Below are positions 6,969 to 62,680 of a stretch of DNA of 64,000 nt, one piece after another; within the stretch, counting starts at the first letter, position 1; every line of letters begins with the position of its first letter. The notes beneath the pieces are model-generated. The model worked only from the letters and a program-made list of their open reading frames with translations. It ran no database searches and was not told the origin of the DNA. The position numbers and the translations under genes are program-made. The stretch spans positions 9,153 through 73,152 of the forward strand of contig CAZYPW010000004.1 in NCBI GenBank assembly GCA_964649615.1, written 5' to 3'. The DNA is from an uncultured Gammaproteobacteria bacterium (lineage in GTDB: Bacteria > Patescibacteriota > Microgenomatia > Daviesbacterales > UBA10151).

Positions 6969-6983
6969 AAAAGTTATACTTAA

Positions 6984-7919: not shown

Positions 7920-7921
7920 TT

Positions 7922-9792: not shown

Positions 9793-9794
9793 AA

Positions 9795-12454: not shown

Positions 12455-12467
12455 TTGAGTTTTGAGT

Positions 12468-44777: not shown

Positions 44778-45332
44778 CTATATTTGTACTAACTCTTCCT
44801 CCTTAGTCTTCCCCAAACTTTCAACTTCTGCTATCTTTTTATCCACCAACTCCTGAAGCAGTTTTTCTCTTCTGAAAAATTCATCTTCACCAAATTTTCC
44901 ATCATCAGATTGTTTTTTCCACTCATTCCTAAAATCTTGCCTGATTTGCCTGATGGATACCTTAGTATCCTCCATTTTGTGCTGCAGAATTTTAATAAAT
45001 TCTTCTCTTCTCTCTGCAGTTAAAGGAGGGATAGGCAATCTGATTAGAGTTCCTTCATTAGAAGGGTTTAAACCTAAATTTGCTTCCTGAATTGCTTTAA
45101 TTACGTTTTGCAGCACTGAGGCATCCCAAACTTGAACTGTCAAAAGAGAGGGTTGCGGTACAGAGATATTTCCCACTTCAATCAGTTTCATAATACCCCC
45201 ATAAGCCTCAACTGGAATATTCTCAATCATGCCAGGATTTGCTCTGCCAGCCCTAATCCCTGCCAACTCCATTTTAAAATGATGCAAGGCATCTTCTATT
45301 TTTTTGTTTGGTTCAGACAGTACTGGATCCAT
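44778..45332 (-). CDS. frr: ribosome recycling factor
   Basis: 184 aa. The ...AGIRAGRANPGMIENIPVEAYGG... pattern is typical of Frr. Confidence 0.9.
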   Translation of the reverse strand: MDPVLSEPNKKIEDALHHFKMELAGIRAGRANPGMIENIPVEAYGGIMKLIEVGNISVPQPSLLTVQVWDASVLQNVIKAIQEANLGLNPSNEGTLIRLPIPPLTAERREEFIKILQHKMEDTKVSIRQIRQDFRNEWKKQSDDGKFGEDEFFRREKLLQELVDKKIAEVESLGKTKEEELVQI

Positions 45333-45460
45333 GTTTATTAAATTCTAAATACTAATATCGAAATTCGAAACAAATTCTAATATTCAAAATTCAAAAGTTT
45401 TAAACATTTGAAAATTAGAATTTTGATATTGTTTCGTATTTAGGATTTCGTGCTTCGAGT

Positions 45461-45910
45461 TTACTCTCCTAAAGATATTCGCTCAAACCTGCTAACCTGA
45501 ATATTTTCTCCCAATTTTCCCATAACTGATTTTATCAACTGGTCAACAGTCAAAGTATTATCTCTAATATACTCTTGTTTAAGTAACTGCTCTACAGATG
45601 AAGGATTCATAGAGGCAATTTGTAAAGAGAGTTCATGGGCTAAATTTTTAAAATCATCAGTTCTAGCCACAAAATCTGTTTCACAAAGCAGTTCAACTAA
45701 AACTCCAACTTTTCCAGAGTGGGAATAAACATCAACAATACCTGCTTTAGTTTCCCTGCCGCCTTTTTTAGCTCCCTTTTCAAATCCTTTTTGTTTTAGG
45801 TACTCTTTGGCTTTTTCAATATTGCCCTTAGAAGAGCTCAGGGCCTCTTTACAGTCAGCAATCCCAGCCCCTGTTTGTTCCCTTAACTTTTTAATTAAAT
45901 CTAAATTCAT
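45461..45910 (-). CDS. tsf: elongation factor Ts (short form)
   Basis: N-terminal UBA-like LIKKLREQTGAGIADCKEAL and a TDFVARTDDF core. Only 149 aa. Confidence 0.75.
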   Translation of the reverse strand: MNLDLIKKLREQTGAGIADCKEALSSSKGNIEKAKEYLKQKGFEKGAKKGGRETKAGIVDVYSHSGKVGVLVELLCETDFVARTDDFKNLAHELSLQIASMNPSSVEQLLKQEYIRDNTLTVDQLIKSVMGKLGENIQVSRFERISLGE

Positions 45911-46752
45911 ACTATTTTTTCTGATTCTTTAACTGCTGCTTTTTCTACTTGTTCTTCTGCTGCTGCAACTTCCATTTTTATCTCTTCAGGCAATTCTTCA
46001 TCAGCAGCTTTTTTCTCATCAGATAACCTTTTTTGCTCTGCCTTTTCAGCAATTTTTCCCGCCTCTTTTTTACCTTCTGAATATGCTTCTATTAAACATT
46101 CTACTAAAATTTTAATAGATTTGATGGCATCATCATTGCCTGTTACAAAATGATCTAATCTGGTGGGATCTGCATTTGAATCAGCTATGGCAAAGACTTT
46201 AATGCCCAGCCTGCCTGCTTCTTTGGTAGCAATTTCATCTGTAACAGCATCTGCTACAAAAACCCCTCCAGGCAGAACTTCCATATTCAAACAGCCTTTA
46301 TAAACTTGTTCTAATTTTTCTATTTTCCTGCTTATTAAAAGCTGTTCTTTTTTGGTATATTTTTTTAGTTGCCCTTTTTCTTTTTGCTCTTTTAATTCCT
46401 TTAATTTTTTAATATTTTTGAATACTTCATCAAAATTAGTCAAAAATCCTCCAACCCATCTCTCTGTTAAATATGGTGCTCCTGCTTTTTGGGCTGCTTC
46501 TTCAATAATAGCTCTGGCTTGTTTTTTAGTTCCTACTAACAACAAAGTTTTACCCTCTTTGCCAAAATTATATAAAGCCTCTGCAGTTTCTTTAAGCAGT
46601 TTTTCTGTTTTAGTTAAATCAATAATATGGACCCCATCTTTAGCTCCATAGATATATGGTTTCATCCTGGGGTGACCACGCCTAACCTGATGTCCAAAAT
46701 GAACACCAGCCACAAGTAGTTCCTGTAATGTTGGTAATTTATACGCTGACAT
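45907..46752 (-). CDS. rpsB: 30S ribosomal protein S2 with acidic C-terminal extension
   Basis: LLVAGVHFGHQVRRGHPRMKPYIYG and LLVGTKKQ motifs. Confidence 0.9.
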   Translation of the reverse strand: MSAYKLPTLQELLVAGVHFGHQVRRGHPRMKPYIYGAKDGVHIIDLTKTEKLLKETAEALYNFGKEGKTLLLVGTKKQARAIIEEAAQKAGAPYLTERWVGGFLTNFDEVFKNIKKLKELKEQKEKGQLKKYTKKEQLLISRKIEKLEQVYKGCLNMEVLPGGVFVADAVTDEIATKEAGRLGIKVFAIADSNADPTRLDHFVTGNDDAIKSIKILVECLIEAYSEGKKEAGKIAEKAEQKRLSDEKKAADEELPEEIKMEVAAAEEQVEKAAVKESEKIV

Positions 46753-46884: not shown

Positions 46885-47361
46885 CTAGGGTTTTTCTAAA
46901 TCTAGAAATTTATATTTCAACCCATTATATTCATGACTTTCTTCGAAAACCACTTTTTTAAAGTTTGAGTAATCCGGGAAAAAAACATCTGCATCAGGAT
47001 TATCTTCAATTACTGTTAAGTAAAGCTTATTTGCTATCCCAATTGCCTGTTTATAAATTTCTCCACCTCCAATAATAAATACTTCTTCTTCATTTTGCAC
47101 CAGGCCTAAGGCTTCTTCTAAAGAATGGGTAACTGAAACTCCTTCTGCAAAATAATCTTCATCGCGGGTGATAACAATATTTCTTCTATTAGGCAGTGGT
47201 ACCCCAATTGATTCAAAAGTTTTCCTACCCATGATAATTGGGTGCCCAGAAGTTATTTCTTTAAATCTTTTTAAATCTTGCGGGATATGATAAATCAACC
47301 TATTATTTTTACCTATTGCCCTATTTTCTGATGCTATTGCTGCAATCATGGAAATTCGCAT
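46885..47361 (-). CDS. folA: dihydrofolate reductase
   Basis: ISMIAAIASENRAIGKNNRLIYHIPQDLKRFKEITSGHPIIMGRKTFESIG. Start at MRISM preferred; the ORF track extends to 47412. Confidence 0.8.
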   Translation of the reverse strand: MRISMIAAIASENRAIGKNNRLIYHIPQDLKRFKEITSGHPIIMGRKTFESIGVPLPNRRNIVITRDEDYFAEGVSVTHSLEEALGLVQNEEEVFIIGGGEIYKQAIGIANKLYLTVIEDNPDADVFFPDYSNFKKVVFEESHEYNGLKYKFLDLEKP

Positions 47362-47365
47362 AGTA

Positions 47366-48379
47366 CTATCCTGACATTTTACCAGTTTTCGGATCATAAA
47401 GCCCACCGGCAACAGTTAACTCTGCTTTAAGCATTGGATAAGGATCATAACCCTCAAGCTCTACCATTTCCGGTTTAAAATCATCAATAGATTTTAATTT
47501 TCCATTTATTTTTATCTTAGGAAATGGACGGGGCTTTCTTTTTAATTGCTCTTTTACTTGCGGAATATGATTTTCATAAATATGCGCATCTCCAAAAGTA
47601 TGGATAAATTCTCCTGGTTTAAGTCCGGCAATCTTTGCCAAAACTATTGTAAGTAATGCGTAGCTTGCAATATTGAAAGGCACCCCCAAAAATAAATCAG
47701 AAGAGCGTTGATATAATTGCAGAGATAATTTTCCATTCCTGTTTGAAATTTGAAACATATTATGACAAATTGGAAATCTTGATGCATCTTCATTTGTAGC
47801 CATGGTATATAAATATTCCGGATTCCAGGAATTTACAATTAAGTTTTTTGCATCCGGGTCATCTTTCATCTCCTGTAATATCCACTTAAGTTGATCTATA
47901 GTTCGACCCTTTTTTCTGGCCTGCCCTGAGCTTGTCGAATGGGTTGGCCATTTTCTCCACATCTCTCCATAAATTCTTGGTAATTCCCCGTGCTCTTTAG
48001 CAAACTTTTTATCTGTTTTTATTTTCTCTATAAATTCTTCCTTACTTTTGACTTTTGACTTTTGACTTTTGACTTTGTATATCTTATACGGATAATCATC
48101 CCAAATATGCACATTTTGATCTACCAAATATTTAATATTGGTCTGTCCTGACATAAACCAATAGAGCTCATGTATTACTCCTTTCCAGTAAACTTTTTTG
48201 GTAGTTAAAAGCGGGAATCCGCCAGCTGGCGGACTTTGGGACAAATCATATCTTGTTTGCCTGCCAAAAAGAGAGTACAGCACAATCCCTGTTCCCCGAT
48301 CCACTTTCCTTTCTCCATGTTCCAAGGCTTCCTTTAATAAATCTAAGTATTGATATTCAGGATGTTTCTGCTTTACCAT
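47366..48379 (-). CDS. thyA: thymidylate synthase ThyA carrying several short in-frame insertions
   Basis: GFPLLTTKK and HELYWF motifs and the catalytic-Cys region (FPICHNMFQ). Insertions relative to the E. coli ThyA sequence as recalled: SPPAG (palindrome), KVKSQKSKVKSK (heptamer repeat) and HSTSSGQARKK (block shared with proS). Confidence 0.9.
   Translation of the reverse strand: MVKQKHPEYQYLDLLKEALEHGERKVDRGTGIVLYSLFGRQTRYDLSQSPPAGGFPLLTTKKVYWKGVIHELYWFMSGQTNIKYLVDQNVHIWDDYPYKIYKVKSQKSKVKSKEEFIEKIKTDKKFAKEHGELPRIYGEMWRKWPTHSTSSGQARKKGRTIDQLKWILQEMKDDPDAKNLIVNSWNPEYLYTMATNEDASRFPICHNMFQISNRNGKLSLQLYQRSSDLFLGVPFNIASYALLTIVLAKIAGLKPGEFIHTFGDAHIYENHIPQVKEQLKRKPRPFPKIKINGKLKSIDDFKPEMVELEGYDPYPMLKAELTVAGGLYDPKTGKMSG
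48044..48076. repeat. (CTTTTGA)x4 heptamer tandem repeat inside thyA
   Basis: acttttgacttttgacttttgacttttgactttg. Encodes KVKSQKSKVKSK on the coding strand. Confidence 0.6.
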
Positions 48380-48401
48380 TTTTTAATTTCTAATAAAAAC
48401 A

Positions 48402-48470
48402 GCGAAGTCTGAGTCATAAAAGCAATCTGAAGATTTTGTGTGTAAGTTGCTAGTCACAAAATCTTCACAT
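48402..48470. repeat. intergenic hairpin element (perfect 12-bp stem), family member X
   Basis: gcgaagtc...gaagattttgtg[tgtaagttgctagt]cacaaaatcttc has a perfect 12-bp stem at 48429-48466. Related copy at 49127-49210. Confidence 0.5.
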
Positions 48471-48545
48471 AGTGAAACTAGAGTATAACTTTAATGATTA
48501 ATAATTTCTAGTCGAACGGTGCTTTTTGACCAGATGAGCTGATTT

Positions 48546-49109
48546 CTACACTTGTCTTTCTACTTTCTTCGGGCTGACTCTACCTCCCTGGTGTTGCCCC
48601 CTATACTTTATAGTTTTTCCTTCTATCTTATGAAAAATTATATTACAAATTCTGGCACCCAGCTGTAACTTTACGGGAAAAGGAGAAAGATTTGTGAGTC
48701 CCATCGTAAGCTTACCCACATATCCCGGATCTGTTTTGCTATTAAGCAGCAAAAGCCCTGATCTAAAAAGGGAAGTTCGCGGGTGAAGTATTGGCATTAA
48801 ATCTTCCGGTGTATTTATCTCCTCATATGTTTGCACCAGATAATATTCTCCAGGCTTTATTGTTACCTCCAAAACCTTCCCTTCCACAAACTCTGCAACT
48901 AATTTTGTTTCCACTCCCTTCCTGTTACCTAAAACCTGTCCACTGTCCACTTCTATAAAAGCCCCGCCTTTTATGATTTTATGCACAGAACCTAACCTTA
49001 AATCCACCCCCACACCCTCTGGATAATTTAGTTCTCTTTTACCCAGGTTTTTTATTAACCCATACTTTTTTATTCTTTTGTGGATTTGATTAATTCCAAG
49101 TACAGACAT
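48546..49109 (-). CDS. dCTP deaminase/dUTPase-family protein (second paralogue)
   Basis: Dcd/dUTPase-fold motifs RTSLFRSGL and DPGYVGKLTMGL. ATG start at 49109 preferred over the GTG start at 49136. Confidence 0.7.
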   Translation of the reverse strand: MSVLGINQIHKRIKKYGLIKNLGKRELNYPEGVGVDLRLGSVHKIIKGGAFIEVDSGQVLGNRKGVETKLVAEFVEGKVLEVTIKPGEYYLVQTYEEINTPEDLMPILHPRTSLFRSGLLLLNSKTDPGYVGKLTMGLTNLSPFPVKLQLGARICNIIFHKIEGKTIKYRGQHQGGRVSPKKVERQV

Positions 49110-49126
49110 AGTAAATTTATAAGGAG

Positions 49127-49210
49127 GCGAAGTCACGAGTTAGAAAAAATGTTGAGGATTTTGTGCAGAGTGACTTAATGATTATGAATCGCTAAACCAC
49201 AAAATTCTCA
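49127..49210. repeat. intergenic hairpin element, family member Y
   Basis: gcgaagtcacgag...gaggattttgtg[32 nt]cacaaaattctc has an 11/12 stem. Shares gcgaagtc, gattttgtg/cacaaaat and taatgatta blocks with 48402-48470. Confidence 0.5.
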
Positions 49211-49226
49211 CCAAGCGAGCAAGTCT

Positions 49227-49892
49227 CTACCGTGCGAGCGATTTTTTCAACCGTGACGAGCCGACTTTCTTTCTTCCCATTATATTTGAAACCTCTGGCA
49301 AATCTGAACCACCATACCTGTTATTAGGAGAATTTTTATATGATCTTGAAACAGGAGCAGACAGCTTTTCAAAAGAAAAAGCACAAATTGGAGCCCCTTC
49401 ATAAATAACCACTCTTTTGCCTTTTAAAAATGTGCCGAATTCCAAAACCGGATGTCCATCCCAACCTGGATCAAACCTGGCTGCAGTGGAATGTACCACC
49501 ACTCCCAGTCTGGCCAAAGAGGATTTTCCATGCAGGTGTCCCACAATATTATCTGGTAAAGTTAATTTTTCTTTAGTGGTAGCAATCACAAAATCTTTAT
49601 CAGATAGAACAAAAGGCTGGCCCGGCTTAAGTTCTATAAATTTCATCATAGATTCCATCTCTTCTTTGCTGGTGTGTTTGGTATCAATAATATCCCAACC
49701 ATCACCGGTAAAAACCCGCAGTTTATTCCCTAAATGAAAATCTATGGTCACCTCATCAACGGAATCCTCCCAATCCTTTGGCAAAGGATTAATTTTGATA
49801 ATCCCTTTCTTGATATGTTCTCTAATTGCCCAATCAGGCAGGGTCCCTACCATATTTGGATCAGAGATTTTCTTGCGTGTCTTCTTTGGCAT
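49227..49892 (-). CDS. dcd: dCTP deaminase
   Basis: DFHLGNKLRVF and SSLARLGVVVHSTAARFDPGWDGHPVLEF are typical of Dcd. Confidence 0.8.
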   Translation of the reverse strand: MPKKTRKKISDPNMVGTLPDWAIREHIKKGIIKINPLPKDWEDSVDEVTIDFHLGNKLRVFTGDGWDIIDTKHTSKEEMESMMKFIELKPGQPFVLSDKDFVIATTKEKLTLPDNIVGHLHGKSSLARLGVVVHSTAARFDPGWDGHPVLEFGTFLKGKRVVIYEGAPICAFSFEKLSAPVSRSYKNSPNNRYGGSDLPEVSNIMGRKKVGSSRLKKSLAR

Positions 49893-50068: not shown

Positions 50069-50626
50069 ATGGATCCACATCATCTACTGGTAAAAATAGT
50101 TAAAATTTTAAACTCCTTAAAAATTCCATACCTTGTAACTGGAGGTGTCGCAATTTATGTCTGGGGTAGACCACGGTTTACAGCAGATATAGATTTGGTA
50201 GTAGAATTACAGGAAAAAGATGTCAAAAAATTGGTTCAGACTCTGATTAAGGAAGGTTACGTAGATGAAGATGCGGTAAGGGAAGCTATCACCAATCAAG
50301 GCGAATTCAACTTTATTGATCAGGAAGAAGGCATTAAGGTTGATTTTTGGATACTAAAAAAAGATGAGTTTGATAAATCTAAATTTAAAAGAAGAATAGC
50401 TAAAAAGGTATTAAATCAAAATATTTATTTTATCTCACCTGAAGACTTAATTTTAGTAAAACTTTTATGGTTTAAGGAAAGCCGGTCATTCAGACACTTG
50501 GAAGATATTCTGTCAATCTTGCAAATGCTCGGGAAAAAAGTTAACTTTGGTTATTTAAGAGAGTGGGCCAAAAAACAAAATACCCTGGGAGTTTTAGAAG
50601 AACAAATTGCTCTGGTATCAAGATAA
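50069..50626 (+). CDS. nucleotidyltransferase-fold protein (Pol-beta superfamily-like), orphan
   Basis: GRPRFTADIDLVV resembles the G-x-x-R-x-T-x-DxD NTase motif. A 55-codon ORF (49935-50102) overlaps its start in another frame. Confidence 0.45.
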   Translation: MDPHHLLVKIVKILNSLKIPYLVTGGVAIYVWGRPRFTADIDLVVELQEKDVKKLVQTLIKEGYVDEDAVREAITNQGEFNFIDQEEGIKVDFWILKKDEFDKSKFKRRIAKKVLNQNIYFISPEDLILVKLLWFKESRSFRHLEDILSILQMLGKKVNFGYLREWAKKQNTLGVLEEQIALVSR

Positions 50627-50663: not shown

Positions 50664-51533
50664 TTATTTTTCAATACTGCCCCGAATCCAAGTTCCTGGA
50701 TGTTTAGGGTTAAAAGTGTTTCTTACATTAACTGGAATCCTTTTATCCCATACCGGTCCCAATGCTAGATAATGAAATACTTTAGCGCCGGACATACCAA
50801 GCTCAGCCATTTCTTCGTAAAGAAGATAGGGTATAGTTGCAGCCTGTGGAACTATATTCGGATCTGCTGTTAAAACACCATTTGTGTCTGTCCAATTTTC
50901 ATATACTACTGCATTTAATCCACCTGCTAAATATGCCCCTGTAATATCTGACCCGCCTCTGGGAAAAGTTCTAATTCTACTTTTACTATCTTGACCATAA
51001 TATCCTGGAACTACAAATCTTTCGACACCTCGCAACCTTTGGGATATCAATCTGTAAGATTCTTCTTGATTAAACACCCCGTCTTCATGAAATTTTATTA
51101 TTTCTGCAGCATCAACAAATTCTACTTCTAAGTATCTTGCTAAAATTCTTCCAGAAAGCCATTCGCCACGAGATGCAGCCCAAGCCACTGTTAAATCTTC
51201 ATTTTCTTTTTTGACCATCAATCCATTTTTTATTGCTTCTAAATCATCGTCTATGCAGATCTCTAATTCATCCGCTATACTTAAAAAACGTTTCTCAATA
51301 AAATCAAAAGTGCCTCTGAAAGATTCACCCCTAAAAGATAATTCCCCACAATTTATTAATAGATCAGTCGTCTTTACAGAATCTTTTTTATCCTTTTCTT
51401 TTCCAGGAGCGGAGGGAACTATAATCCTGCGTCTACAATCTTTATTTATGATATTTCCCACAGCAATAAATCCTCCAGCGTTTGCTAAAGAACTACCTCC
51501 GTATTTTGCTATTATATCTTTTTCTATATTCAT
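50664..51533 (-). CDS. aspartokinase-like amino-acid kinase, catalytic domain only (no ACT domains)
   Basis: N-terminal IAKYGGSSLA (KFGG-type) and C-terminal RGGSDITGAYLAGGLNA...ENWTDTNGVLTADPNIV match the aspartokinase catalytic domain (PF00696). Ends without ACT regulatory domains. Start placed at MNIEKD. Confidence 0.65.
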   Translation of the reverse strand: MNIEKDIIAKYGGSSLANAGGFIAVGNIINKDCRRRIIVPSAPGKEKDKKDSVKTTDLLINCGELSFRGESFRGTFDFIEKRFLSIADELEICIDDDLEAIKNGLMVKKENEDLTVAWAASRGEWLSGRILARYLEVEFVDAAEIIKFHEDGVFNQEESYRLISQRLRGVERFVVPGYYGQDSKSRIRTFPRGGSDITGAYLAGGLNAVVYENWTDTNGVLTADPNIVPQAATIPYLLYEEMAELGMSGAKVFHYLALGPVWDKRIPVNVRNTFNPKHPGTWIRGSIEK

Positions 51534-51547
51534 AGATTTTTCGCCAC

Positions 51548-51577
51548 AAAAAAACCTCCCTGGTGGGAGGCTTCGTA
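51548..51577 (-). terminator. intrinsic terminator / attenuator hairpin 14 nt upstream of the aspartokinase start
   Basis: The minus strand reads gaagcctcccaccagggaggttttttt: a 6-bp GC stem (cctccc/gggagg) followed by a T7 run. The 5' arm can instead pair with the upstream ggagctttcgta (11/12 pairs) as an antiterminator. Confidence 0.55.
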
Positions 51578-51604
51578 ACTGTCTTTTATTTGACAATTTT
51601 TACA

Positions 51605-51673
51605 CTACGAAAGCTCCTCCCTATGAGAGGTAGTTTTAGTAGTTTTCTTTAATGCATTCATTAAGCTATTCAT
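51605..51673 (-). promoter_or_regulatory. candidate Thr-rich leader peptide ORF of a transcription-attenuation leader
   Basis: The minus-strand ORF atg aat agc tta atg aat gca tta aag aaa act act aaa act acc tct cat agg gag gag ctt tcg tag encodes MNSLMNALKKTTKTTSHREELS. Its stop lies inside the antiterminator 5' arm, and its Thr codons overlap stem 1. Confidence 0.4.
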
Positions 51674-51832
51674 GGTTAATAAGATATCATATTTTTGACA
51701 ATTTATCAAGATAAAGTTTTAAAATATCCTGACTGATTTCTTCTTTAGATTTCATTTTTCCATTTTTCTATCCATGCATAAAAGTGATCAAAATAATGTG
51801 TATTATAATAAATAGTGTGGTATAATAATTAT

Positions 51833-52096
51833 ATGAATGGTTTATTTTCTAAAATAATATCTATAACCGAACTCCGTCGTAAATTTGGTGAAGTTACCGA
51901 AAATTTGGCCAAAACCGATGCAGTAATCTTAACCAAAGGAGGTGAACCTTTTGCAATCTTGAAGGCAGCTCCAGAGGAAAAGAGAAAACTCTTGATAAAA
52001 ACAGCCGGAGCCTGGAAAGATACAGCATTGGATAATGATATTTTGTGGAAGAAAGTATCCAAAAAAAAGTCCCGTAAAAAGCCAATCTCTTTATGA
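51833..52096 (+). CDS. type II antitoxin (Phd/YefM-like)
   Basis: The small protein ISITELRRKFGEVTENLAKTDAVILTKGGEPFAILK precedes and overlaps a PIN toxin gene by 4 nt. ATG at 51833 preferred. Confidence 0.6.
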   Translation: MNGLFSKIISITELRRKFGEVTENLAKTDAVILTKGGEPFAILKAAPEEKRKLLIKTAGAWKDTALDNDILWKKVSKKKSRKKPISL

Positions 52097-52491
52097 AGGC
52101 GTACTTAATTGATACTTCAGTTATAATAAACTATCTCAGACATAAAGAATCTACAGTTGAAACCATAAATAATTTAAGCGGAGAACTTACTTCATCCTAT
52201 ATTTGTCTGGCAGAACTTTATGAAGGGATTTCCCGCGTCCGGGAAAAAGAAAAAGCAGAGAAAGTTGTGCTGGATTTTTTTGTTGGATTAGATCGAACTT
52301 ACAGTTTAGACGAAGATATCGCCAAACACTTTGGACAAATCAAAGCTAATCTTAAAATGAAAGGCCAAGTTATAGAGGACTTGGATATTCTGCTGGCAGT
52401 AACCTGTATTGCCAAGGGTCTTACTTTAATAACATCAAACCCTAAACATTTCTCAAGAGTTGCCAATTTAGAAATATTAACAGTAAATTAA
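52093..52491 (+). CDS. vapC: PIN-domain toxin VapC
   Basis: MKAYLIDTSVIINYL with acidic PIN residues (D7, E41, D-like in LITSN). 132 aa. Confidence 0.8.
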   Translation: MKAYLIDTSVIINYLRHKESTVETINNLSGELTSSYICLAELYEGISRVREKEKAEKVVLDFFVGLDRTYSLDEDIAKHFGQIKANLKMKGQVIEDLDILLAVTCIAKGLTLITSNPKHFSRVANLEILTVN

Positions 52492-52680: not shown

Positions 52681-53055
52681 CTACTGATCAAATCTTCCAG
52701 CCTGATAAGAGTTTCTTAAGACCCTAGTTATATCCCAAAAAACTCTCTGTAAACCTTCACGGAGAGGATGTGGGAACTCCTGTAATGCTAAGTTGAGTTC
52801 TGACATGGTACCGACTGTCCCCTCTACACGGTGTCTATCAACCACAAGATCTACTGTCGTCAATCCCAACACAAATGCTAGCTTCTCAAATGTACCCATG
52901 GTTAAATTTGATTTACCACCTAAAACCCGTGATAGCTGGGACTTGGAAATTCCTGCTCTTCTTGCCACCTGTGATTGGGACATACCACCTTCCTCTACTT
53001 TCCTTATAAGCTCTTGTCTCCACCTCTCATTTGCCTGATTATTTTCTGCAGTCAT
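52681..53055 (-). CDS. XRE-family HTH transcriptional regulator with C-terminal extension; GC-richer than surroundings
   Basis: GMSQSQVARRAGISKSQLSRVLGGKSN HTH. The coding DNA has visibly higher G+C than its flanks. Confidence 0.7.
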   Translation of the reverse strand: MTAENNQANERWRQELIRKVEEGGMSQSQVARRAGISKSQLSRVLGGKSNLTMGTFEKLAFVLGLTTVDLVVDRHRVEGTVGTMSELNLALQEFPHPLREGLQRVFWDITRVLRNSYQAGRFDQ

Positions 53056-53140: not shown

Positions 53141-53785
53141 ATGATAAGCGTCTCTGATGCCTTAAATGAAATAATTTCCACCCAACCTTTTATAGAAGAA
53201 GGTTTAGCTCGTGGACTTATAAACTATTCTGCATATGCTCGAGAAGTAAAACCGATGTTTGAAAAAAGACTTTATAAAGATCTAACTGAAGGATCTATTG
53301 TGATGGCTTTAAAAAGGATTAGTGAAAAGCTAAATAAAAAGCCTAAAAAAGAAAATAGTCTAAATTTGACTAATTTGACTGTTAGATCTAATTTAACTGA
53401 ATTTACTTATCTTTATTCAGAATCTTTACCTAATAAGCAAAAAGAATTGTTTAATCATTTATCTGAAGAAAAGGATGTTTATTGTGCAGTATCTCAGGGG
53501 ATAAGGGAAACTACTTTTATAGCCAGTCCTGAGGCTACTTTAGCAATTGAAAGGATTTTCTCATCTGCAAACTTGATTGCTAAAATAGAAGATCTCTCCT
53601 CTGTTTCCATACATCTACCAAAAGAGGTAGTGTATATTCCTGGAGTTTATTATTCAGTGTTGAAAATGTTGGCTTGGGAAAATATAAATGTGATAGAAGT
53701 TTTATCAACTTACACTGAGTTGACAATTATTTTGGAAACTAAAGATGTGGATAAGGCTTTTTCTATTCTAAAAAATATTTCTTAA
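53141..53785 (+). CDS. hypothetical protein with ACT-like C-terminal fold (putative small-molecule-binding regulatory protein)
   Basis: The C-terminal pattern SVSIHLPKEVVYIPGVYYSVLKMLAWENINVIEVLSTYTELTIILE looks like an ACT fold (tentative). Divergent from the XRE gene. Confidence 0.4.
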   Translation: MISVSDALNEIISTQPFIEEGLARGLINYSAYAREVKPMFEKRLYKDLTEGSIVMALKRISEKLNKKPKKENSLNLTNLTVRSNLTEFTYLYSESLPNKQKELFNHLSEEKDVYCAVSQGIRETTFIASPEATLAIERIFSSANLIAKIEDLSSVSIHLPKEVVYIPGVYYSVLKMLAWENINVIEVLSTYTELTIILETKDVDKAFSILKNIS

Positions 53786-53787
53786 AT

Positions 53788-54276
53788 TTATTTAACTTCT
53801 GATAATTTATCAAGATAAATATTTAAATAGTTGATATCATCCTCCAGATATTTATATTCCAAATTTTGCGTATTTTTCGGATAAGCTACATATAAATCAT
53901 TTAATATTTTTTTATGATTTGTGAATTGGGTTTTTACTGCAGCCACTTTATCTTTTAAATTATTTGCAATTATTAAATCTGTTATTTGTCCTGCTGTTGT
54001 TGAATACCTCAAAGATGAGGGTAGCAAAAAGTCATAGCTTTTATGATCCAAAATAGCCGCAATTTCTGCTAATCTGGCATCGAGCAAAGAACTCATATAA
54101 TCTAATTTATCTGTCGGGTTAGATTTAAAGTTAAGATATATTTTTTCCTGAACTCTTTTTAAACTAAATAACAGCGGGTTATCCGGAGCGGCGCTTTGGG
54201 ATAAGATCAAAGATAAAGCAGTAATAGCTAAAATAACTATTAATATAACTTGAATCCTGGTTTGCATTTTTTTCAT
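53788..54276 (-). CDS. hypothetical N-terminally anchored/secreted protein
   Basis: 162 aa with signal/anchor IQVILIVILAITALSLILS. No recognised domain. Confidence 0.45.
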   Translation of the reverse strand: MKKMQTRIQVILIVILAITALSLILSQSAAPDNPLLFSLKRVQEKIYLNFKSNPTDKLDYMSSLLDARLAEIAAILDHKSYDFLLPSSLRYSTTAGQITDLIIANNLKDKVAAVKTQFTNHKKILNDLYVAYPKNTQNLEYKYLEDDINYLNIYLDKLSEVK

Positions 54277-54947
54277 ACTTTTAGTGCGCGAAGCGCGCGA
54301 GCTTTGCTTAGAATCTTTAAAATCTCTCTGTGGATTTTCTCTTCGGGGTTCATTTTATCATTCTCCATACAATTTATAACAACCCAATTTTTTTCTGACT
54401 GGGAAAGTTCCAGATAAATTTGGGCCGCTTTTTCTTCATGTTCCAAACTTTTTTCATGAATATCAGTCAGATGAGCTTTTAAGGCATTCTCTTGTCCCAT
54501 TTTTGGATCAACATTTAAAAGAATCACTAAATCTGGTTTTGGCATGCCATTAGTTTGATATTCCAGCTGATCCACCCATTTTATAAAATCTTCTCTCTTG
54601 CTCTCATCTAAATTTGCTCCCAAGTGGGCTTTAGATGCAGAAACATATCTGTTAGCAATAATTAATTTTCCATTTTGCAGCCAGTTTTCAATTTCTGGTT
54701 TTGCTAAAAGTCTATCCGCTGCATAAGCTTCAGCTATCCAATATGGATCCACCTTATTTATAGCCCCAAATTCTCCCTCCAAATATCTTTTAACTAATTT
54801 TCCATATTCATTTTCCTGATATCTTGGAAAGCTTATCACCTCAAAAGGAATGCTTTTTTCCTGAAAATATTTACTTAAAAATTCAATCTGGGTAGTTTTC
54901 CCAGATCCATCTATCCCATCTATAACAATAAGCAAACCTTTGTTCAT
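54273..54947 (-). CDS. tmk: thymidylate kinase
   Basis: LLIVIDGIDGSGKTTQ P-loop, DRY-like ANRYVSAS and a lid region. Start placed at MNKGL; the ORF track extends 33 nt further. Confidence 0.85.
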   Translation of the reverse strand: MNKGLLIVIDGIDGSGKTTQIEFLSKYFQEKSIPFEVISFPRYQENEYGKLVKRYLEGEFGAINKVDPYWIAEAYAADRLLAKPEIENWLQNGKLIIANRYVSASKAHLGANLDESKREDFIKWVDQLEYQTNGMPKPDLVILLNVDPKMGQENALKAHLTDIHEKSLEHEEKAAQIYLELSQSEKNWVVINCMENDKMNPEEKIHREILKILSKARALRALKV

Positions 54948-55294
54948 AATATAACCTCTAATCCATTCTTGGAATAACAACCAATAAATGGCTGCTTTTT
55001 TCTCCTTAAAGTATTTATAGCACTTATAATCTCGTCCATAAAGGGAATAATCTCTTCTGGTTTAACATTTGGAAAGTCCAAAACCATCACACTTACCTTT
55101 TCCTCGCCTTCAATCGATTTTAGATAATCTTTATCAAAACTTAAAATAATCCGTTTTTCAACAAGTGCTTTTGTTCTAACTGTTGAATCAGAAACACCAT
55201 GTAGAGATCGCTGGATTCTTTTAACATCATGTCTTCTCTTTTGTAAATAAGAAATTAAAGTTGGAGGAAAATTTTCATCAGCGAGTAATTTCAT
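54944..55294 (-). CDS. DUF5615-family (PIN-like) putative toxin
   Basis: MKLLADENFPPTLISYL N-terminus is typical of the DUF5615 partner of DUF433 proteins. Overlaps the upstream DUF433 gene. Confidence 0.55.
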   Translation of the reverse strand: MKLLADENFPPTLISYLQKRRHDVKRIQRSLHGVSDSTVRTKALVEKRIILSFDKDYLKSIEGEEKVSVMVLDFPNVKPEEIIPFMDEIISAINTLRRKKQPFIGCYSKNGLEVIL

Positions 55295-55601: not shown

Positions 55602-56378
55602 TTGATATGCTTTCTTTTAATGGAAAATGTAGATTTACCTAAATCACCCAGTCCCAACAAATTCTCAGAAAGATTTATTAAACCTGTTCTAGAAAGATTT
55701 CAAAGATTAAAGGAAGGAAGAGCTACAACTTTTGAATCTCAAAATCCTTTTGGGTTCGCAACTCCAGACTTTAGCAATTTATCAGAAGACCAAAAAAGAG
55801 AATTATGGATTACTCAAGGAGGTAAAGAATTTAAAGGTGAGGTGGGTGAAGTTAGAAGATATGTAATTGGAGTAAGACCTCACGTTGTTGATCAAGTTAA
55901 AAAGAATGGTTTTGACCCAGAGAAAAAAAGGATGGGCTATACAGCTTTCTTACCCCATTTTATAGGAGGAACAGAGGGTAAAGGAGTATACGGAACTACT
56001 AATCCTACTATGGCTAGTAGAGAATATGGGCCATCCATAATCGTGGCTGATTTTGCTTTAGGGAAAGTAGCTACACCAGATAAAAATCATATTTTAAAAG
56101 TTTTAAATAAATTGCATGATCCTATTAGATGGAGTCAATCTCTTTACAGTGCGATAGCAATGGTTTGGGGAACAGGATCCTTTTTACTGGGTGAAACTGT
56201 TGTATCTCCACAGGCAGCTGTGGCTATACATACTGCATCTCTAGAAGATTTTATTAAAAAAATCCAGCAACACAGAGAATGGATTGTAGCTAAAGATCCT
56301 AAAAGAGTGAAGATAGTAGATGTTTTTCCTTATCTTGAGGCCTATCAGCAAAAGGAATCAGAATTAACAAGAAGATAA
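55602..56378 (+). CDS. hypothetical protein, no recognisable domain
   Basis: 258-aa ORF (possible start MENVDLPKS at 55620). Convergent with pyrG (4-nt spacer). Confidence 0.4.
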   Translation: MICFLLMENVDLPKSPSPNKFSERFIKPVLERFQRLKEGRATTFESQNPFGFATPDFSNLSEDQKRELWITQGGKEFKGEVGEVRRYVIGVRPHVVDQVKKNGFDPEKKRMGYTAFLPHFIGGTEGKGVYGTTNPTMASREYGPSIIVADFALGKVATPDKNHILKVLNKLHDPIRWSQSLYSAIAMVWGTGSFLLGETVVSPQAAVAIHTASLEDFIKKIQQHREWIVAKDPKRVKIVDVFPYLEAYQQKESELTRR

Positions 56379-56382
56379 TAAT

Positions 56383-58026
56383 TTAATTCTTGCTTACTGC
56401 CTCTATAAATGCAAGAAATAGAGGGTGTGGAGAAAGAGGCCTTGATTTATATTCCGGATGGCCCTGGGTGGCCATATAAAAAGGATGGGTCTCTTTGGGA
56501 AATTCTATTATCTCCACTAAATTCTCCTTCGCTGACCTGGCTGAAAATACCATGCCCTTGTTTTCAAAATCTTTAGAATACTCATTATTAAATTCATACC
56601 TGTGCCTGTGCCTTTCTGAAGTTAGTCCTTCAGGATTTTTAAGCTGGCCATATTCCTTGTATATTTCATATGCTTGAGTGCCTTTTGCAACAATAGCATC
56701 CCAGGAACCTAACCTCATTGTTCCACCATATGCTCTTTTAGCCATGAATTTTTTTTGTTTAGGCATTAAATGAATTACAGGATGCTTAGTCCTTTTATCA
56801 TTTTCAGTGGTATTGGCATCTTTCCAGCCTAAAATATCCCTGGCAAACCCTATTACCGAAAGCTGCATCCCATAACAAAGCCCCAGATAGGGAATCTTTC
56901 TATCCCTAGCATATGAGGCTGCAGCTATCATCCCCTCAGCCCCCCTTTCTCCCCAGCCAATTGGCACAATTAACCCATCAGGATTTCCTATAATTTCTAC
57001 TCCTTCCTTTTCCACTTTCTCAGCATCTATCCATAAAGTTTGAACTTTAACCCCAATATTAAACGAGGCATGATCTATAGCATCAAGTAAGGCTGCATAA
57101 GAATCTCTTAACTGATAATCCCCTGTGCCAAAATATTTTCCCACAATGGCAATGGTAACCACTTTAGCTTTTTTGCTGTTTATTCTTTCCACTAAATTTT
57201 CCCATGCCTTCAAATCAGGTTTTTTTACCTTCAGGCCCAATTTTTTAAGTATTCTTTCTTCCAAACCTTGTTTGTGTAAAACCAAAGGAATCTCATAGAC
57301 TGATGGTAAATCCGGATTAGAGATAATATCCTCCGGTTTCATATTACAAAACAGGGCAAATCTTTCCCTTCTTCTTTGATCCAGATATTTTTCAGATCTG
57401 GTAATCACAAAATCAGGCTGAATTCCTAAAGAGTTTAAGGTCCTGACAGATAGTTGAGTGGGTTTGGTTTTTGGCTCGCCAAGGTGAGGAGGTGTTGGTA
57501 CATATGAAACATGAATATGTAAAACATCACCCGGCTTTTGTAATGTCAAAATTCTTGATGCTTCATAGTAAAAAACATTCTGGTACTCACCTGCTGTTCC
57601 CCCCAGCTCAATAATGACAATGTCGGCATTTTTTACCTTTCCTAGGTGATTTATCCTGTCAATAATTTCATTAGTCAAATGTGGAATAGCTTCTACATCC
57701 TCCCCCTGGTATTCAAATCTTCTTTCCCGATCAATTACTGACTGATAGATTCTACCCATGGTGACAAAATTTTCCTTACCCATATCCTCATCCAAAAACT
57801 TCTCATAAGTTCCGATATCCATATCAGCTTCTGTTCCGTCTTCACACAGGAATGGATCACCATGTTCTATTGGATTGATTGTTCCTGCATCCAAATTTAA
57901 GTAATTTTCAAATTTAATGGGGGCAACTTTGTAACCTGCAGATTTTAGCAGGAAAGCAATTGAGGCAGCTGTTGTGCCTTTTCCAATACCAGAAATTACA
58001 CCACCTGAAACAAATATATATTTCAT
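56383..58026 (-). CDS. pyrG: CTP synthase
   Basis: N-terminal synthetase domain MKYIFVSGGVISGIGKGTTAASIA and C-terminal GATase GLCYGMQL. Confidence 0.95.
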   Translation of the reverse strand: MKYIFVSGGVISGIGKGTTAASIAFLLKSAGYKVAPIKFENYLNLDAGTINPIEHGDPFLCEDGTEADMDIGTYEKFLDEDMGKENFVTMGRIYQSVIDRERRFEYQGEDVEAIPHLTNEIIDRINHLGKVKNADIVIIELGGTAGEYQNVFYYEASRILTLQKPGDVLHIHVSYVPTPPHLGEPKTKPTQLSVRTLNSLGIQPDFVITRSEKYLDQRRRERFALFCNMKPEDIISNPDLPSVYEIPLVLHKQGLEERILKKLGLKVKKPDLKAWENLVERINSKKAKVVTIAIVGKYFGTGDYQLRDSYAALLDAIDHASFNIGVKVQTLWIDAEKVEKEGVEIIGNPDGLIVPIGWGERGAEGMIAAASYARDRKIPYLGLCYGMQLSVIGFARDILGWKDANTTENDKRTKHPVIHLMPKQKKFMAKRAYGGTMRLGSWDAIVAKGTQAYEIYKEYGQLKNPEGLTSERHRHRYEFNNEYSKDFENKGMVFSARSAKENLVEIIEFPKETHPFYMATQGHPEYKSRPLSPHPLFLAFIEAVSKN

Positions 58027-58125: not shown

Positions 58126-59034
58126 TTAAATAAGCTCATAAAAACCATTTCCTACTCTCCTAACTATTCCTTCTTGGACTAAAAGATTAAGACCTCTGCC
58201 GAAAGCCGATCTTCCAGGTTTTCTCTCATTCTCTTGATTTATCAATTCAGCTAAATGACTTAACTTAACTGGCTCACCTATTCTTTGCATAGCCTCTATT
58301 AATTTTCCCCTAGTTTCATCTCCACCTTTAGGACCAATATGACTTCTTTCCTGCTGATAGTTGTCTAGGAAGTAGGATAATTTTGTTGAAACCAATGGTC
58401 TGTTTGGAAGTGGGGTTAGAGTATCAGCTACTTCTTTTATTGGTAAAAGTACTTCATCATAAAACATCTTAGTTAAATCAGTTGCTTCAGCTTGGCTTAC
58501 AGTATCTCCCCCCTTAAAAACTGACTGATGGGATAAAGCCCCAATGTTAGATAAAAATGTGAGGACATTTGAAATATCACTAGGATATACATTTAGGGCA
58601 TTCCCCAGATCATACCAAGTAAAAGTAGTATCAGGATACTGTAAAATATAATTAATTATCTTATTAAAAAAGCTTCTATTTTTAAAAGCTTTCCTCTTTT
58701 TTCTCATTTCCTGATACAAATATTCCACATCATGAAGTTTTTCTTCATCCCTTAATATATAGCCAGACCAACCTTTAACCTTCTGACCTCTGTGATCTCT
58801 TCCAGGAGATTGGTAATGAAGGATACCACAAGCGCTGGAGTTGTCTGAATCATCACCCAAATTATTTAAAACAAGTGAAATAGCTCCTCTTTTAACTTGC
58901 CCTTCTAAGACCTCTTCCAAATCAACAGTTCGATGTACACCAGGATGAGTTACCAGGTACTCAACCACCTTAAAAACTGCTAGAGGGCGTCTTTCATCTG
59001 TCCGGGATTGAATAGAGCCTATCAGTCTGAACAT
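58126..59034 (-). CDS. hypothetical protein (possibly winged-helix containing), moderately GC-richer
   Basis: 302-aa ORF with no recognisable catalytic motif. C-terminal LLVQEGIVRRVGNGFYEL resembles a wHTH recognition helix/wing. Confidence 0.4.
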   Translation of the reverse strand: MFRLIGSIQSRTDERRPLAVFKVVEYLVTHPGVHRTVDLEEVLEGQVKRGAISLVLNNLGDDSDNSSACGILHYQSPGRDHRGQKVKGWSGYILRDEEKLHDVEYLYQEMRKKRKAFKNRSFFNKIINYILQYPDTTFTWYDLGNALNVYPSDISNVLTFLSNIGALSHQSVFKGGDTVSQAEATDLTKMFYDEVLLPIKEVADTLTPLPNRPLVSTKLSYFLDNYQQERSHIGPKGGDETRGKLIEAMQRIGEPVKLSHLAELINQENERKPGRSAFGRGLNLLVQEGIVRRVGNGFYELI

Positions 59035-59570: not shown

Positions 59571-59960
59571 CTAATTTTTATAAAGCTTCTCAAAATCTTG
59601 ATCAAAAGAAAAAAGCTCATCTTTTTTGGCTATTTGAGACAGATAAATGTCTGTAAAATCCTGCTTTCTTTTGATCATTTTTTCCAGAACCTTTGCCATC
59701 AATTCTTTCTCAACCTCAATAATTTTAATGTTTTTAAGAATTAATAGCTTAATAAGCTGTGGAAGAAATATTTTTCTTTTAATTTTGTAGAATTTCTCCA
59801 GTATCCAAACAACTTCATTTACTACTAAAATTGAAACTAATGCATTAACTTCTCTTTCCTCAATACTTTCAAAAAAACTCCTGGACTTCTGATACTGTTC
59901 TTCAACATCTCTAGTGATAAATCTTATGAGGATATTACTGTCTACAAAGACATCTTTCAT
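59571..59960 (-). CDS. vapC: PIN-domain toxin VapC
   Basis: MKDVFVDSNILIRFITRD with conserved acidic residues (D, E in VVNEVVW, D in FDQDF). 129 aa. Confidence 0.75.
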   Translation of the reverse strand: MKDVFVDSNILIRFITRDVEEQYQKSRSFFESIEEREVNALVSILVVNEVVWILEKFYKIKRKIFLPQLIKLLILKNIKIIEVEKELMAKVLEKMIKRKQDFTDIYLSQIAKKDELFSFDQDFEKLYKN

Positions 59961-60236
59961 TTACTTTTTATTCATCTTCTTCACTAAATCTCTGGCCACA
60001 ATTTTTTTTGTTTCTTCCATTACTTTAGAAAAAGGTATTCCCCTTTTTGAAGGTGGGATATATTTCAACAGACTTCCTCCGACCTGATCCACTATGGAAG
60101 TTTTCAAGGGTTTTACCAAAAGAGCACCCTTTTGGGGATATAATGCTATTCTCATTCTAGGAGCTAATTTTAACTCTTGCTGGATATCTTTGGGAATAGT
60201 TATTTGACCTTTAGAAGAAAGTAAAGTTATTTTCAT
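59961..60236 (-). CDS. AbrB/MazE-type (SpoVT/AbrB swapped-hairpin) antitoxin
   Basis: MKITLLSSKGQITIPKDIQQELKL is typical of the swapped-hairpin barrel. Immediately upstream of the VapC gene. Confidence 0.65.
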   Translation of the reverse strand: MKITLLSSKGQITIPKDIQQELKLAPRMRIALYPQKGALLVKPLKTSIVDQVGGSLLKYIPPSKRGIPFSKVMEETKKIVARDLVKKMNKK

Positions 60237-62440: not shown

Positions 62441-62680
62441 TCACTCAAAGTCAGAATCTAAAACTTCCGGGTTAACTTTTTCTAACTCTACCTTTAGATC
62501 TGTTGATTCATTAAACTGAAAAGTTTTTGGGGCATTAGGTGGAGCTGGGGTAGAAACTGGGGCAGTAACTGGTGAGGATTTAGGATTTACCAATGAGAGG
62601 TCTTTCTGACCTGTGACAAAATATACTGCGATCGCTGCCAAAATTGTCAACATAGCCACTAACAGAATTTTGTTTTTCAT
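62441..62680 (-). CDS. hypothetical small membrane-anchored Pro-rich protein
   Basis: 79 aa. N-terminal TM LLVAMLTILAAIAVYFV followed by a PVTAPVSTPAPPNAP stretch. Confidence 0.35.
   Translation of the reverse strand: MKNKILLVAMLTILAAIAVYFVTGQKDLSLVNPKSSPVTAPVSTPAPPNAPKTFQFNESTDLKVELEKVNPEVLDSDFE

Follow-up and report, generated by a model that had tools for sequence, protein, structure and literature searches.

The closest described counterparts of the element reported here are the leader-peptide attenuators of Escherichia coli, namely thrL of the thrLABC operon and its equivalents in trp, his, leu, phe and ilv, in which a short open reading frame (ORF) with codons for the end product is combined with three mutually exclusive RNA helices, 1:2, 2:3 and 3:4. 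In this class the terminator lies just before the first structural gene and the stop codon is so placed that the terminating ribosome blocks segment 2. The regulatory codons of thrL are those of Thr plus Ile, and thrA, the gene controlled by it, also encodes an aspartokinase. Here we analyze a 64-kb stretch of chromosome (contig CAZYPW010000004.1; hereafter the window), the minus strand of which carries an arrangement of this kind immediately upstream of the gene for an aspartokinase lacking ACT domains. We consider it probable that this is a ribosome-mediated leader-peptide transcription attenuator controlling the kinase gene in Candidatus Daviesbacteria, a lineage of the Candidate Phyla Radiation (CPR, or Patescibacteria). 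The resemblance to thrL is one of design: there is no sequence or covariance-model similarity, the codons are those of Lys as well as Thr, the ORF has no Shine-Dalgarno sequence and begins where the transcript itself is predicted to begin, and the host is a member of the CPR.

Lysine control of aspartokinase has classically been ascribed to riboswitches and allostery. The lysine riboswitch (L-box), which many bacteria have in front of lysC and dap genes, acts by premature termination in the 5' leader. It answers the same need as the CPR element, that is, end-product control of aspartokinase and lysine genes; unlike it, the CPR element is shorter, is built around an ORF and lacks both a ligand-binding junction and a match in Rfam. 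In neither the window nor eight related loci did any Rfam family attain its gathering threshold, with the lysine riboswitch and the T-box among those without a match, which disposes of the known riboswitches that the initial annotation had wished to see excluded. At E <= 10 in the window, Thr_leader was absent and Phe_leader was the only leader family (26 bits against a cut-off of 55); the sub-threshold matches to Phe_leader, STnc100 and csRNA stem from the terminator hairpin.

Attenuators at the very 5' end of the transcript have been described in Actinobacteria, including the leaderless poly-Cys short ORFs of mycobacteria (10.1101/834739) and the ilvBNC attenuator of Corynebacterium glutamicum (PMC11857589). 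Going by the summary descriptions of these systems, a regulatory short ORF forms the first cistron and its amino-acid-specific codons control the operon, as would be the case here, whereas the phylum, the amino acids (Cys or branched-chain in theirs) and the target genes are different. A further parallel is SEP5 of Sinorhizobium, a translated ORF with six Thr and three Lys codons in the 5' untranslated region of an aspartate-pathway gene, for which a role as leader peptide has been suggested (PMC10117765). As excerpted, that description gives the same pair of amino acids, but it places SEP5 upstream of aspartate dehydrogenase in an alphaproteobacterium and contains no attenuator structure. A literature search of incomplete coverage returned no report of such an element from the CPR, nor of a Lys-codon leader on an aspartokinase. 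We know of no characterized Lys-codon leader peptide. CPR bacteria, which are not growable alone and whose regulation is little known, are usually seen as amino-acid scavengers with little regulation.

Anatomy of the leader and the kinase gene

The features of the locus are as follows:

51681-51709, minus strand: promoter-like element found by a consensus scan, TTGATA at 51709-51704, a 17-nucleotide (nt) spacer and the TG-extended -10 box TATCTT at 51686-51681
51605-51673, minus strand: leader ORF of 22 codons plus UAG, encoding MNSLMNALKKTTKTTSHREELS; ATG at 51673, UAG at 51607-51605
51629-51649, minus strand: putative regulatory codon cluster AAG AAA ACU ACU AAA ACU ACC (KKTTKTT), codons 9-15
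51604-51643, minus strand: helix 1:2, anti-antiterminator and possibly a pause hairpin, -13.4 kcal/mol
51566-51617, minus strand: antiterminator 2:3, enclosing a spacer hairpin at 51598-51577, -19.5 kcal/mol with the enclosed hairpin
51548-51574, minus strand: intrinsic terminator 3:4, GAAGCCUCCC at 51574-51565, loop ACCA, GGGAGGUUUU at 51560-51551
50664-51533, minus strand: aspartokinase, catalytic domain only, 289 amino acids (aa), no ACT domains, Pfam AA_kinase PF00696
53141-53785, plus strand: predicted regulatory (beta) subunit-like protein, 214 aa, an N-terminal helical DUF7523 domain followed by tandem ACT domains

The leader ATG follows the -10 box after seven nucleotides (ATTAACC). 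In helix 1:2 the 5' strand (51643-51625) and the 3' strand (51621-51604) enclose the loop AUA, and the core CCUCUC/GGGAGG is extended by three short stacks, ACUAC/GUAGU, AAA/UUU and CU/AG. The antiterminator is formed by a 5' arm GGAGCUUUCGUA (51617-51606) and a 3' arm UACGAAGCCUCC (51577-51566) with 11 standard pairs out of 12, one U-G wobble among them, and a single C-C mismatch; the first two bases of the leader stop codon sit within its 5' arm. Terminator 3:4 has the core CCUCCC-ACCA-GGGAGG followed by U7, and its stem can be extended to 10 base pairs (-15.1 kcal/mol). The U7 tract occupies 51554-51548, its last U lying 14 nt before the kinase ATG at 51533. The three helices overlap and are mutually exclusive. 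The leader with four Thr in seven codons, the three stems with their T7 tract and the distance to the ATG had all been proposed in the initial annotation, and each was located where it had been placed.

Folding of the 157-nt leader gave -44.1 kcal/mol, as against -26.7 +/- 3.75 kcal/mol for 200 dinucleotide shuffles, none of which was as good (z = -4.6). Lys and Thr together account for 14% of the residues in 16 long ORFs of the window, compared with seven out of seven consecutive codons in the leader. A search of both strands of the window for a short ATG ORF with at least six Lys/Thr codons in seven and a strict terminator returned a single site, which is this leader. Likewise, helix 3:4 is the only strict intrinsic terminator on either strand of the window, and strict intrinsic terminators are almost absent from this genome. 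Under relaxed hairpin-plus-T-run rules the window has nine candidates, mostly weak and intragenic, the leader terminator being the strongest. A packaged terminator scan missed 3:4, probably on account of the ability of the stem to extend into the U-tract; a purpose-written scan finds it. As the 14 nt between terminator and ATG leave no room for a second promoter, expression of the kinase depends on read-through, and a strong terminator so close to the start codon, preceded by the sole promoter, is difficult to account for other than as a regulatory device.

The kinase is 100% identical to a 289-aa protein of Candidatus Daviesbacteria. All its NCBIfam matches are to aspartate kinases, the best being NF006540 (261 bits, model positions 3-288 of 454); with the ACT half missing, this score stays under the cut-off of 434 set for the full length. 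The best match in the PDB is the catalytic domain of 3TVI, an aspartokinase of Clostridium acetobutylicum (residues 3-278, 233 bits), and the motifs KYGGSS (KxGGSS), SAPGK, ASRGE, RGGSD and WTDTNG align with this template. These matches and motifs (KxGGSS/SRGE/RGGSD/WTD) argue that the enzyme is aspartokinase-like and not some other amino-acid kinase. In E. coli AKIII, the Glu and Arg of the motifs bind aspartate. The catalytic domain of 3TVI comprises residues 1-282 (PMC4142519). By alignment, the window protein is such a domain stopping where the ACT domains would begin: the chain has no C-terminal tandem ACT domains, its last residue (289) falling where the catalytic domain ends. Its close homologues, about 20 in number with 57-80% identity, are likewise short, with 283-320 aa as called, and the next-best homologues, at about 48% identity, are full-length enzymes. 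The initial annotation was right about the lack of ACT domains, although the length of 310 aa that it gave belongs to the longest possible ORF, opening with a TTG at 51596 within the leader; according to homology and to the annotation as deposited, the true start is ATG 51533 and the length 289 aa. Recognition of the leader therefore also corrects over-extended kinase calls of this sort.

Conservation of the leader in relatives

To assess conservation, we gathered the upstream regions of 14 contigs encoding short kinases. A complete homologous leader is present in eight Daviesbacteria-type loci, that is, the window and seven others. A 5'-truncated copy was recovered from L139, and another contig, L140, has this partial sequence too. 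With four further loci, there are 12 complete leaders, whose predicted peptides are:

Window: MNSLMNALKKTTKTTSHREELS
L001: MSINSMNLTKKTAKATFQRREFS
L133: MNINILLSKKTTKAAFQRRELS
L134: MSYNFINLTKKTTTEKAFQRREIS
L136: MHNNLVNLLKKIKATHFNTGGFVV
L137: MNINFLVVTSKKTTKKTAALSEGLLL
L138: MNYSVMNLKKTTKSTSLKEGAFVV
L143: MSTNLISLIKKTTKSTFQEREIS
L144 (before another ACT-less kinase): MKLMEKTIAKSNRRKGEAI, cluster EKTIAKS
L002 (Levybacteria, before a full-length aspartokinase): MYIRNFIKKVKKQLPARGFSCCS, cluster IKKVKKQ, no Thr
L003 (Berkelbacteria, before a full-length aspartokinase): MFQVTATTKTTKKMPASTPVVLSL, cluster TATTKTTKK
L105 (metagenome contig): MSLLAIKTTTTTKPRGLRL, cluster KTTTTTK

Examples of the clusters in the Daviesbacteria-type leaders are TKKTAKAT, SKKTTKAA, TKKTTTEKA, KKIKAT (L136), SKKTTKKT and KKTTKST. 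In L144, L002, L003 and L105 the nucleotide sequence is unrelated and the codon choices are synonymous ones, with the design retained. Judged from these sequences, at least five CPR lineages carry the element, consisting of an in-frame ATG ORF with a Lys/Thr cluster and a terminator with a competing antiterminator, ahead of aspartokinase genes.

The genes that follow the leader in relatives point in the same direction. In L134 it precedes the short aspartokinase, a full-length aspartokinase, dapB, dapA, asd, an aminotransferase gene and lysA (6001-12864), and in L002 a class I lysyl-tRNA synthetase gene begins 20 nt downstream of the aspartokinase. This diaminopimelate (DAP)/lysine operon and the pairing with lysyl-tRNA synthetase provide a strong link to the aspartate family, and to lysine especially. 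The two tandem aspartokinases of L134, the short ACT-less one and the full-length one of 450 aa, are just 27% identical to each other, and the gene after the aspartokinase in L002 (7337-9592) encodes a 751-aa fusion of the class I lysyl-tRNA synthetase with a B3_4 domain. Across the lineages, the Lys codons (KK..K) are the most constant feature of the leader, with the number of Thr codons ranging from 0 to 5. Lys thus seems to be at least as conserved as Thr, and the sensed signal would probably be Lys, Thr or both. Accordingly, of the Thr-codon attenuator originally proposed, we retain the attenuator and replace Thr alone by Lys plus Thr, of which Lys is the more constant across lineages.

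The reading frame of the leader also appears to be under selection. An in-frame ATG ORF is present in 12 of the 12 complete leaders, with stops in frame +1 in all 12 and in frame +2 in 11; in composition-matched shuffles the chance of such an open frame is 0.09-0.44 per leader. The AAG AAA codons are spaced 24, 27 or 30 nt from the ATG, depending on the copy, and are always in frame with it, and the L134 leader has retained its frame through a 3-nt insertion. Where the hairpin has suffered 1- or 2-nt indels (L136, L138), the ORF ends at the next stop, 4 nt further on, with UAG or UAA. Since a conserved string, CGUAGUGUAA, contains UAG in one frame and UAA in another, the ribosome would always stop in or at the edge of segment 2. 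Outside the Lys/Thr cluster the peptide is not conserved and the frames differ between copies, which suits a leader peptide whose translation is what counts and whose sequence is otherwise of no importance.

The helices are conserved as well. Compensatory changes in helix 1:2 of the relatives include CCUUCC/GGAGGG and CCUUUC/GAAAGG. Covariation was examined with nine sequences in a covariance-model alignment fitted to the terminator-state structure and not to the antiterminator; a plain MAFFT alignment with RNAalifold had given a partial structure owing to register errors in the hairpins, and was replaced by it. In the terminator state, 90.7% of the cells are paired and eight pairs show compensatory change, as compared with 47-58% pairing in slid controls, and none of 500 shuffles reached the observed pairing or covariation; helix 3:4 by itself has 98.9% of its cells paired and two compensatory pairs. 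For the antiterminator the figures are 83.3% of cells paired and four pairs with compensatory change (slid controls 28-66%), with two of 500 shuffles reaching the observed pairing and 15 of 500 the covariation score. Conservation of the ORF and the three helices, a matter the initial annotation had left to be looked at in related genomes, is therefore borne out, and with a sample of nine related sequences the covariation is supportive rather than conclusive. With a covariance model derived from eight sequences, a single copy is detected in the window (135.7 bits), and the leaders of L002 and L105 are recovered weakly but at precisely their positions; the model could be used to annotate the element in CPR genomes.

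Outside this set the leader was not encountered. The nearest full-length aspartokinase (L145; 49% identity, GC content 54%, apparently not from the CPR) has no leader and a normal Shine-Dalgarno sequence, and no leader is seen in L008, L050 and L052 from other CPR. Among about 120 loci from Arcobacter, Prevotella, Anaerolineae and others, there was no match to a Lys/Thr ORF plus terminator save for one unconvincing case from Saprospirales, L045/L109.

Ribosome position and the alternative explanations

In the window, L001, L134, L136, L138, L143, L003 and L105, the leader ATG is preceded at 6-8 nt by an extended -10 box (TGnTAnnnT). With this spacing in most copies, the leader is probably translated from a leaderless mRNA, and leaderless translation of the ORF is plausible from the position of the promoter. 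An ORF without a Shine-Dalgarno sequence is no objection in itself, given that most genes of the window lack one: among the 22 inspected, a Shine-Dalgarno-like motif was seen only in rpsB, hit and topA. Several window genes have a -10-like hexamer 6-9 nt before the ATG, for example those at 53141 (plus strand), 53055 (minus) and 58026 (minus), and these data suggest that leaderless mRNAs are common in this organism.

We modelled the effect of ribosome position by folding the 12 leaders with the 5' part masked to 8-12 nt past each successive A-site codon, and compared the best terminator-containing structure with the best structure without segment 4. With the ribosome upstream of the cluster, the terminator is predicted to be favoured by about 9-17 kcal/mol (about 5-9 in L137, L002, L003 and L105), because helix 1:2 is intact. 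With the ribosome at or near the stop codon, where it covers segment 2, the terminator is again predicted to be favoured, by 12-17 kcal/mol. Only with the A site on the Lys/Thr cluster does the modelled advantage of the terminator shrink in all 12 leaders, from about -13 to -17 kcal/mol to about -7 to +1 kcal/mol, and in the window the antiterminator would compete best with the A site on codons 12-15 (T K T T). When each lineage is represented by one leader, Lys or Thr occupies 23 of the 31 codons in the modelled stall window and 9 of the 71 elsewhere (Fisher p = 2e-9). In the model, this behaviour is as expected of a trp/thr-type attenuator. Together with the three exclusive and conserved helices, it supports the thr/trp-type architecture proposed at the outset, and the leader, as modelled, has every structural feature of ribosome-mediated attenuators: an ORF, end-product codons, a terminator, exclusive helices and the geometry of the stall.

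From these features we infer where transcription starts, that the leader is translated, that the ribosome stalls on its Lys/Thr codons and that amino acids elicit a response, and the following mechanism may be proposed. Transcription would start at the leader AUG or 1 nt before it, and a ribosome would load on the leaderless 5' end. If charged Lys-tRNA and Thr-tRNA are plentiful, it would reach the UAG at the 3' edge of segment 2 and cover this segment, whereupon the 3:4 terminator would form and RNA polymerase would stop 14 nt before the kinase ATG. If no ribosome loads, helix 1:2 would form and termination would ensue too. If Lys- or Thr-tRNA is scarce, the ribosome would stall on KKTTKTT, covering segment 1 and leaving segment 2 free to pair with segment 3; this antiterminator would block the terminator and the kinase would be transcribed. 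The attenuator yields a concrete hypothesis for metatranscriptomes, namely 3' ends at 51548 with read-through varying with the supply of Lys and Thr. It would imply that these cells couple translation to transcription and initiate on leaderless mRNAs, and that at least some of them actively regulate an aspartate-family pathway and are not wholly scavengers.

Several observations weigh against an attenuator of this kind. The evidence is computational throughout, and the covariation sample is small, with its alignment fitted to the terminator state. There is no Shine-Dalgarno sequence before the leader ORF, so that its translation hangs on leaderless or Shine-Dalgarno-independent initiation, and the spacing from the -10 box to the ATG is longer in some copies, at 10-12 nt in L133 and L137, about 13 nt in L144 and about 21 nt in L002. 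Within the Daviesbacteria group the Lys/Thr codons show almost no synonymous variation; they also supply one side of the lower stacks of helix 1:2, the 5' side of ACUAC/GUAGU and AAA/UUU, and constraint at the RNA level alone could thus explain their conservation there. The argument at the amino-acid level consequently relies on the four other lineages with one sequence each. The varying Thr count and the few regulatory codons in L136 (KKIKAT) and L144 (EKTIAKS) speak against a firm assignment of the sensed amino acid. Three close kinase relatives (L135, L141 and L142) have no leader, which makes the element dispensable for the kinase. Finally, there are no genes of the DAP, Lys or Thr pathways within the window.

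Some of these points bear on a different use of the same RNA, in which the terminator and antiterminator are switched by a small molecule, an uncharged tRNA or an RNA-binding protein acting on the 1:2 hairpin and the ORF is incidental; the neighbouring ACT protein, loaded with Lys or Thr and working in a TRAP- or PyrR-like manner, would be a candidate for such a protein. We hold this to be unlikely. It would account for the preservation of the 1:2 hairpin through compensatory changes, for the near invariance of the nucleotides of AAGAAAACUACUAAA, a part of helix 1:2, within the Daviesbacteria group, for the want of a Shine-Dalgarno sequence before the ORF and for the presence of an ACT-domain gene nearby. 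However, outside Daviesbacteria the nucleotides and hairpin shapes are unrelated, and what recurs is the ORF, its Lys/Thr codons and their position relative to the helices. Despite the spacing of 24, 27 or 30 nt, the ATG invariably falls at the predicted start of the transcript and shares its frame with the Lys/Thr codons, and segment 2 always accommodates the stop codon. Moreover, there is neither a riboswitch or T-box match in Rfam nor a conserved junction resembling a ligand pocket, and the ACT-like gene is absent near most of the leader-bearing loci and adjacent precisely in leader-less ones.

Another reading keeps the leader-peptide attenuator but takes its signal to be general translation capacity or slowing on A-rich Lys codons, or takes the terminated transcript to be a small RNA. 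In its favour, the kind and number of the regulatory codons vary, with Thr at 0-5 and Ile or Ala in some leaders; furthermore, in L001 and the window the kinase lies among pyrimidine-deoxynucleotide and ribosomal genes and not among genes of amino-acid metabolism. Small RNAs derived from attenuators and trans-acting leader peptides are described, in the excerpts considered, from Sinorhizobium (PMC6614838, PMC7298713). Nonetheless, the regulated gene is always an aspartokinase, of a pathway ending in Lys and Thr, the operons of relatives run into DAP/lysine genes or lysyl-tRNA synthetase, and the enrichment in Lys and Thr is limited to the modelled stall window; a functional peptide is at odds with the C-terminal sequence, which is not conserved because the frames differ between copies. 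We therefore rate a signal other than Lys or Thr as improbable. It is highly improbable that there is no regulation at all, with 3:4 a constitutive terminator, an insulator or the 3' end of a small transcript and the ORF and pairings due to chance in an AT-rich spacer, since, even if GGAGG/CCUCC-type repeats pair promiscuously and a 22-codon open frame has a 9-44% chance in shuffles of the same composition, a constitutive terminator at this position would silence a kinase that has no room for another promoter, the whole arrangement is kept across five lineages with covariation, and it is unique in the window.

The ACT-like protein and the gene neighbourhood

The initial annotation had also noted an ACT-like protein encoded separately at 53141-53785, and the comparison of folds agrees with this. 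Residues 1-66 form a separate helical domain, DUF7523, and the protein has weak matches to the ACT_7 and aspartate-kinase C-terminal profiles. A model obtained with AlphaFold2 (AF2) from a 30-sequence alignment has a predicted local distance difference test score (pLDDT) of 83.5, and its top 50 Foldseek matches in the PDB are all regulatory domains or subunits of aspartokinases (E 5e-9 to 8e-8; target-normalized template modelling (TM) score 0.6-0.69). The 214-aa protein is thus predicted to fold like the regulatory subunits of aspartokinases. A BLASTP comparison of it with a full-length aspartokinase gave no match, the relationship being visible only by profile and fold comparison. In the alpha2-beta2 aspartokinases of Corynebacterium, Thermus, Mycobacterium and Pseudomonas (3AAW, 2ZHO, 4GO5, 5YEI), the beta subunit is ACT-only, and the modelled fold of the window protein resembles it. 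The alpha chain of the known enzymes retains its own ACT pair (PMC4142519); in contrast, the window kinase has no ACT domain and the stand-alone ACT protein carries the extra DUF7523 domain. The family of this protein has more than 360 members in the databases, many at 58-77% identity, as against about 20 close short kinases, and one 221-aa member is annotated as 'aspartate kinase'.

The ACT-like gene divergently adjoins the kinase in L135 (1059-1798) and L141 (668-1398), and stands beside a full-length aspartokinase in L089. In L135, L141 and L142, a promoter of the form TTGACA-17-TAnAAT lies 8-9 nt before the kinase ATG; the L142 sequence (1-64) ends just upstream of the kinase. The gene is not in the vicinity of most leader-bearing loci, and in the window it is on the strand opposite to the kinase and 1.6 kb away. 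Although the sample is tiny, this hints at a complementary distribution of the attenuator and the ACT subunit. Going by gene neighbourhood, it is possible that the ACT-like protein is a partner of the kinase, and it is not part of the attenuator; the opposite strand, the distance and the size of its family relative to the set of short kinases make the partnership no more than tentative. One may speculate, with considerable reserve, that a widespread family of leaderless Lys/Thr attenuators acts on the aspartokinase and DAP-lysine operons of the CPR, and that in Daviesbacteria feedback has moved from the ACT protein to the nascent RNA and the ribosome, with the ACT module now separate and adjacent to the kinase mainly where the attenuator is lacking. 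If true, this would point indirectly to coupled transcription and translation, and to leaderless initiation, in the CPR.

The window as a whole is an ordinary chromosomal region with topA, pyrG, tmk, the kinase gene, two dCTP-deaminase-like genes, thyA, folA, rpsB, tsf, frr, rseP, proS and tig, in which toxin-antitoxin modules interrupt the gene order. Pyrimidine-deoxynucleotide genes lie around the kinase at 46885-49892, 54273-54980 and 56383-58026, all on the minus strand; they comprise tandem dCTP-deaminase/dUTPase-like paralogues, thyA (337 aa) and folA, which overlaps thyA, with tmk and pyrG upstream. In L001 the first dcd-like gene follows within 4 nt of the kinase, so that there the attenuator might influence the dcd-like genes. 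The combination of the kinase, two dCTP-deaminase-like genes and a thymidylate synthase had first raised the suspicion of a phage-type DNA-modification or nucleoside-antibiotic cluster, which we reject, as thyA, folA, tmk, pyrG, rpsB, tsf, frr, proS and tig mark an ordinary CPR chromosome.

The genes rpsB, tsf and frr are adjacent to one another (44778-46752, minus strand), and the encoded EF-Ts is unusually short at 149 aa. The UMP kinase gene pyrH, whose usual place is between tsf and frr, is absent here, the gap between these two genes measuring 129 nt. PyrH shares its fold family with the aspartokinase. The latter was considered as a stand-in for the missing enzyme and rejected in this role, as the NCBIfam matches are all to aspartate kinases, 3TVI is the best structural match and the RGGSD, SRGE and WTD motifs are present.

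Accessory genes break the conserved order at 50069-50626 and 51815-52491 on the plus strand and at 52681-53055, 54944-55294 and 59571-60236 on the minus strand. They include an AbiEii/DUF6036-like nucleotidyltransferase gene, which L001 lacks, between the kinase and the dcd-like gene. The kinase and the ACT-like gene are separated by a Phd/PIN pair and a helix-turn-helix gene, and also present are a DUF5615 gene and a second PIN gene preceded by a small ORF. Three ORFs have no Pfam match, at 55602-56378 (plus strand, 258 aa), 58126-59034 (minus, 302 aa) and 62677-63087 (minus, 136 aa), and the first two of these have no NCBIfam match either. Two DUF5667 proteins are encoded on the minus strand at 53788-54276 and 42352-43557, and the 162-aa DUF5667 protein is a conserved neighbour between tmk and the kinase in relatives.

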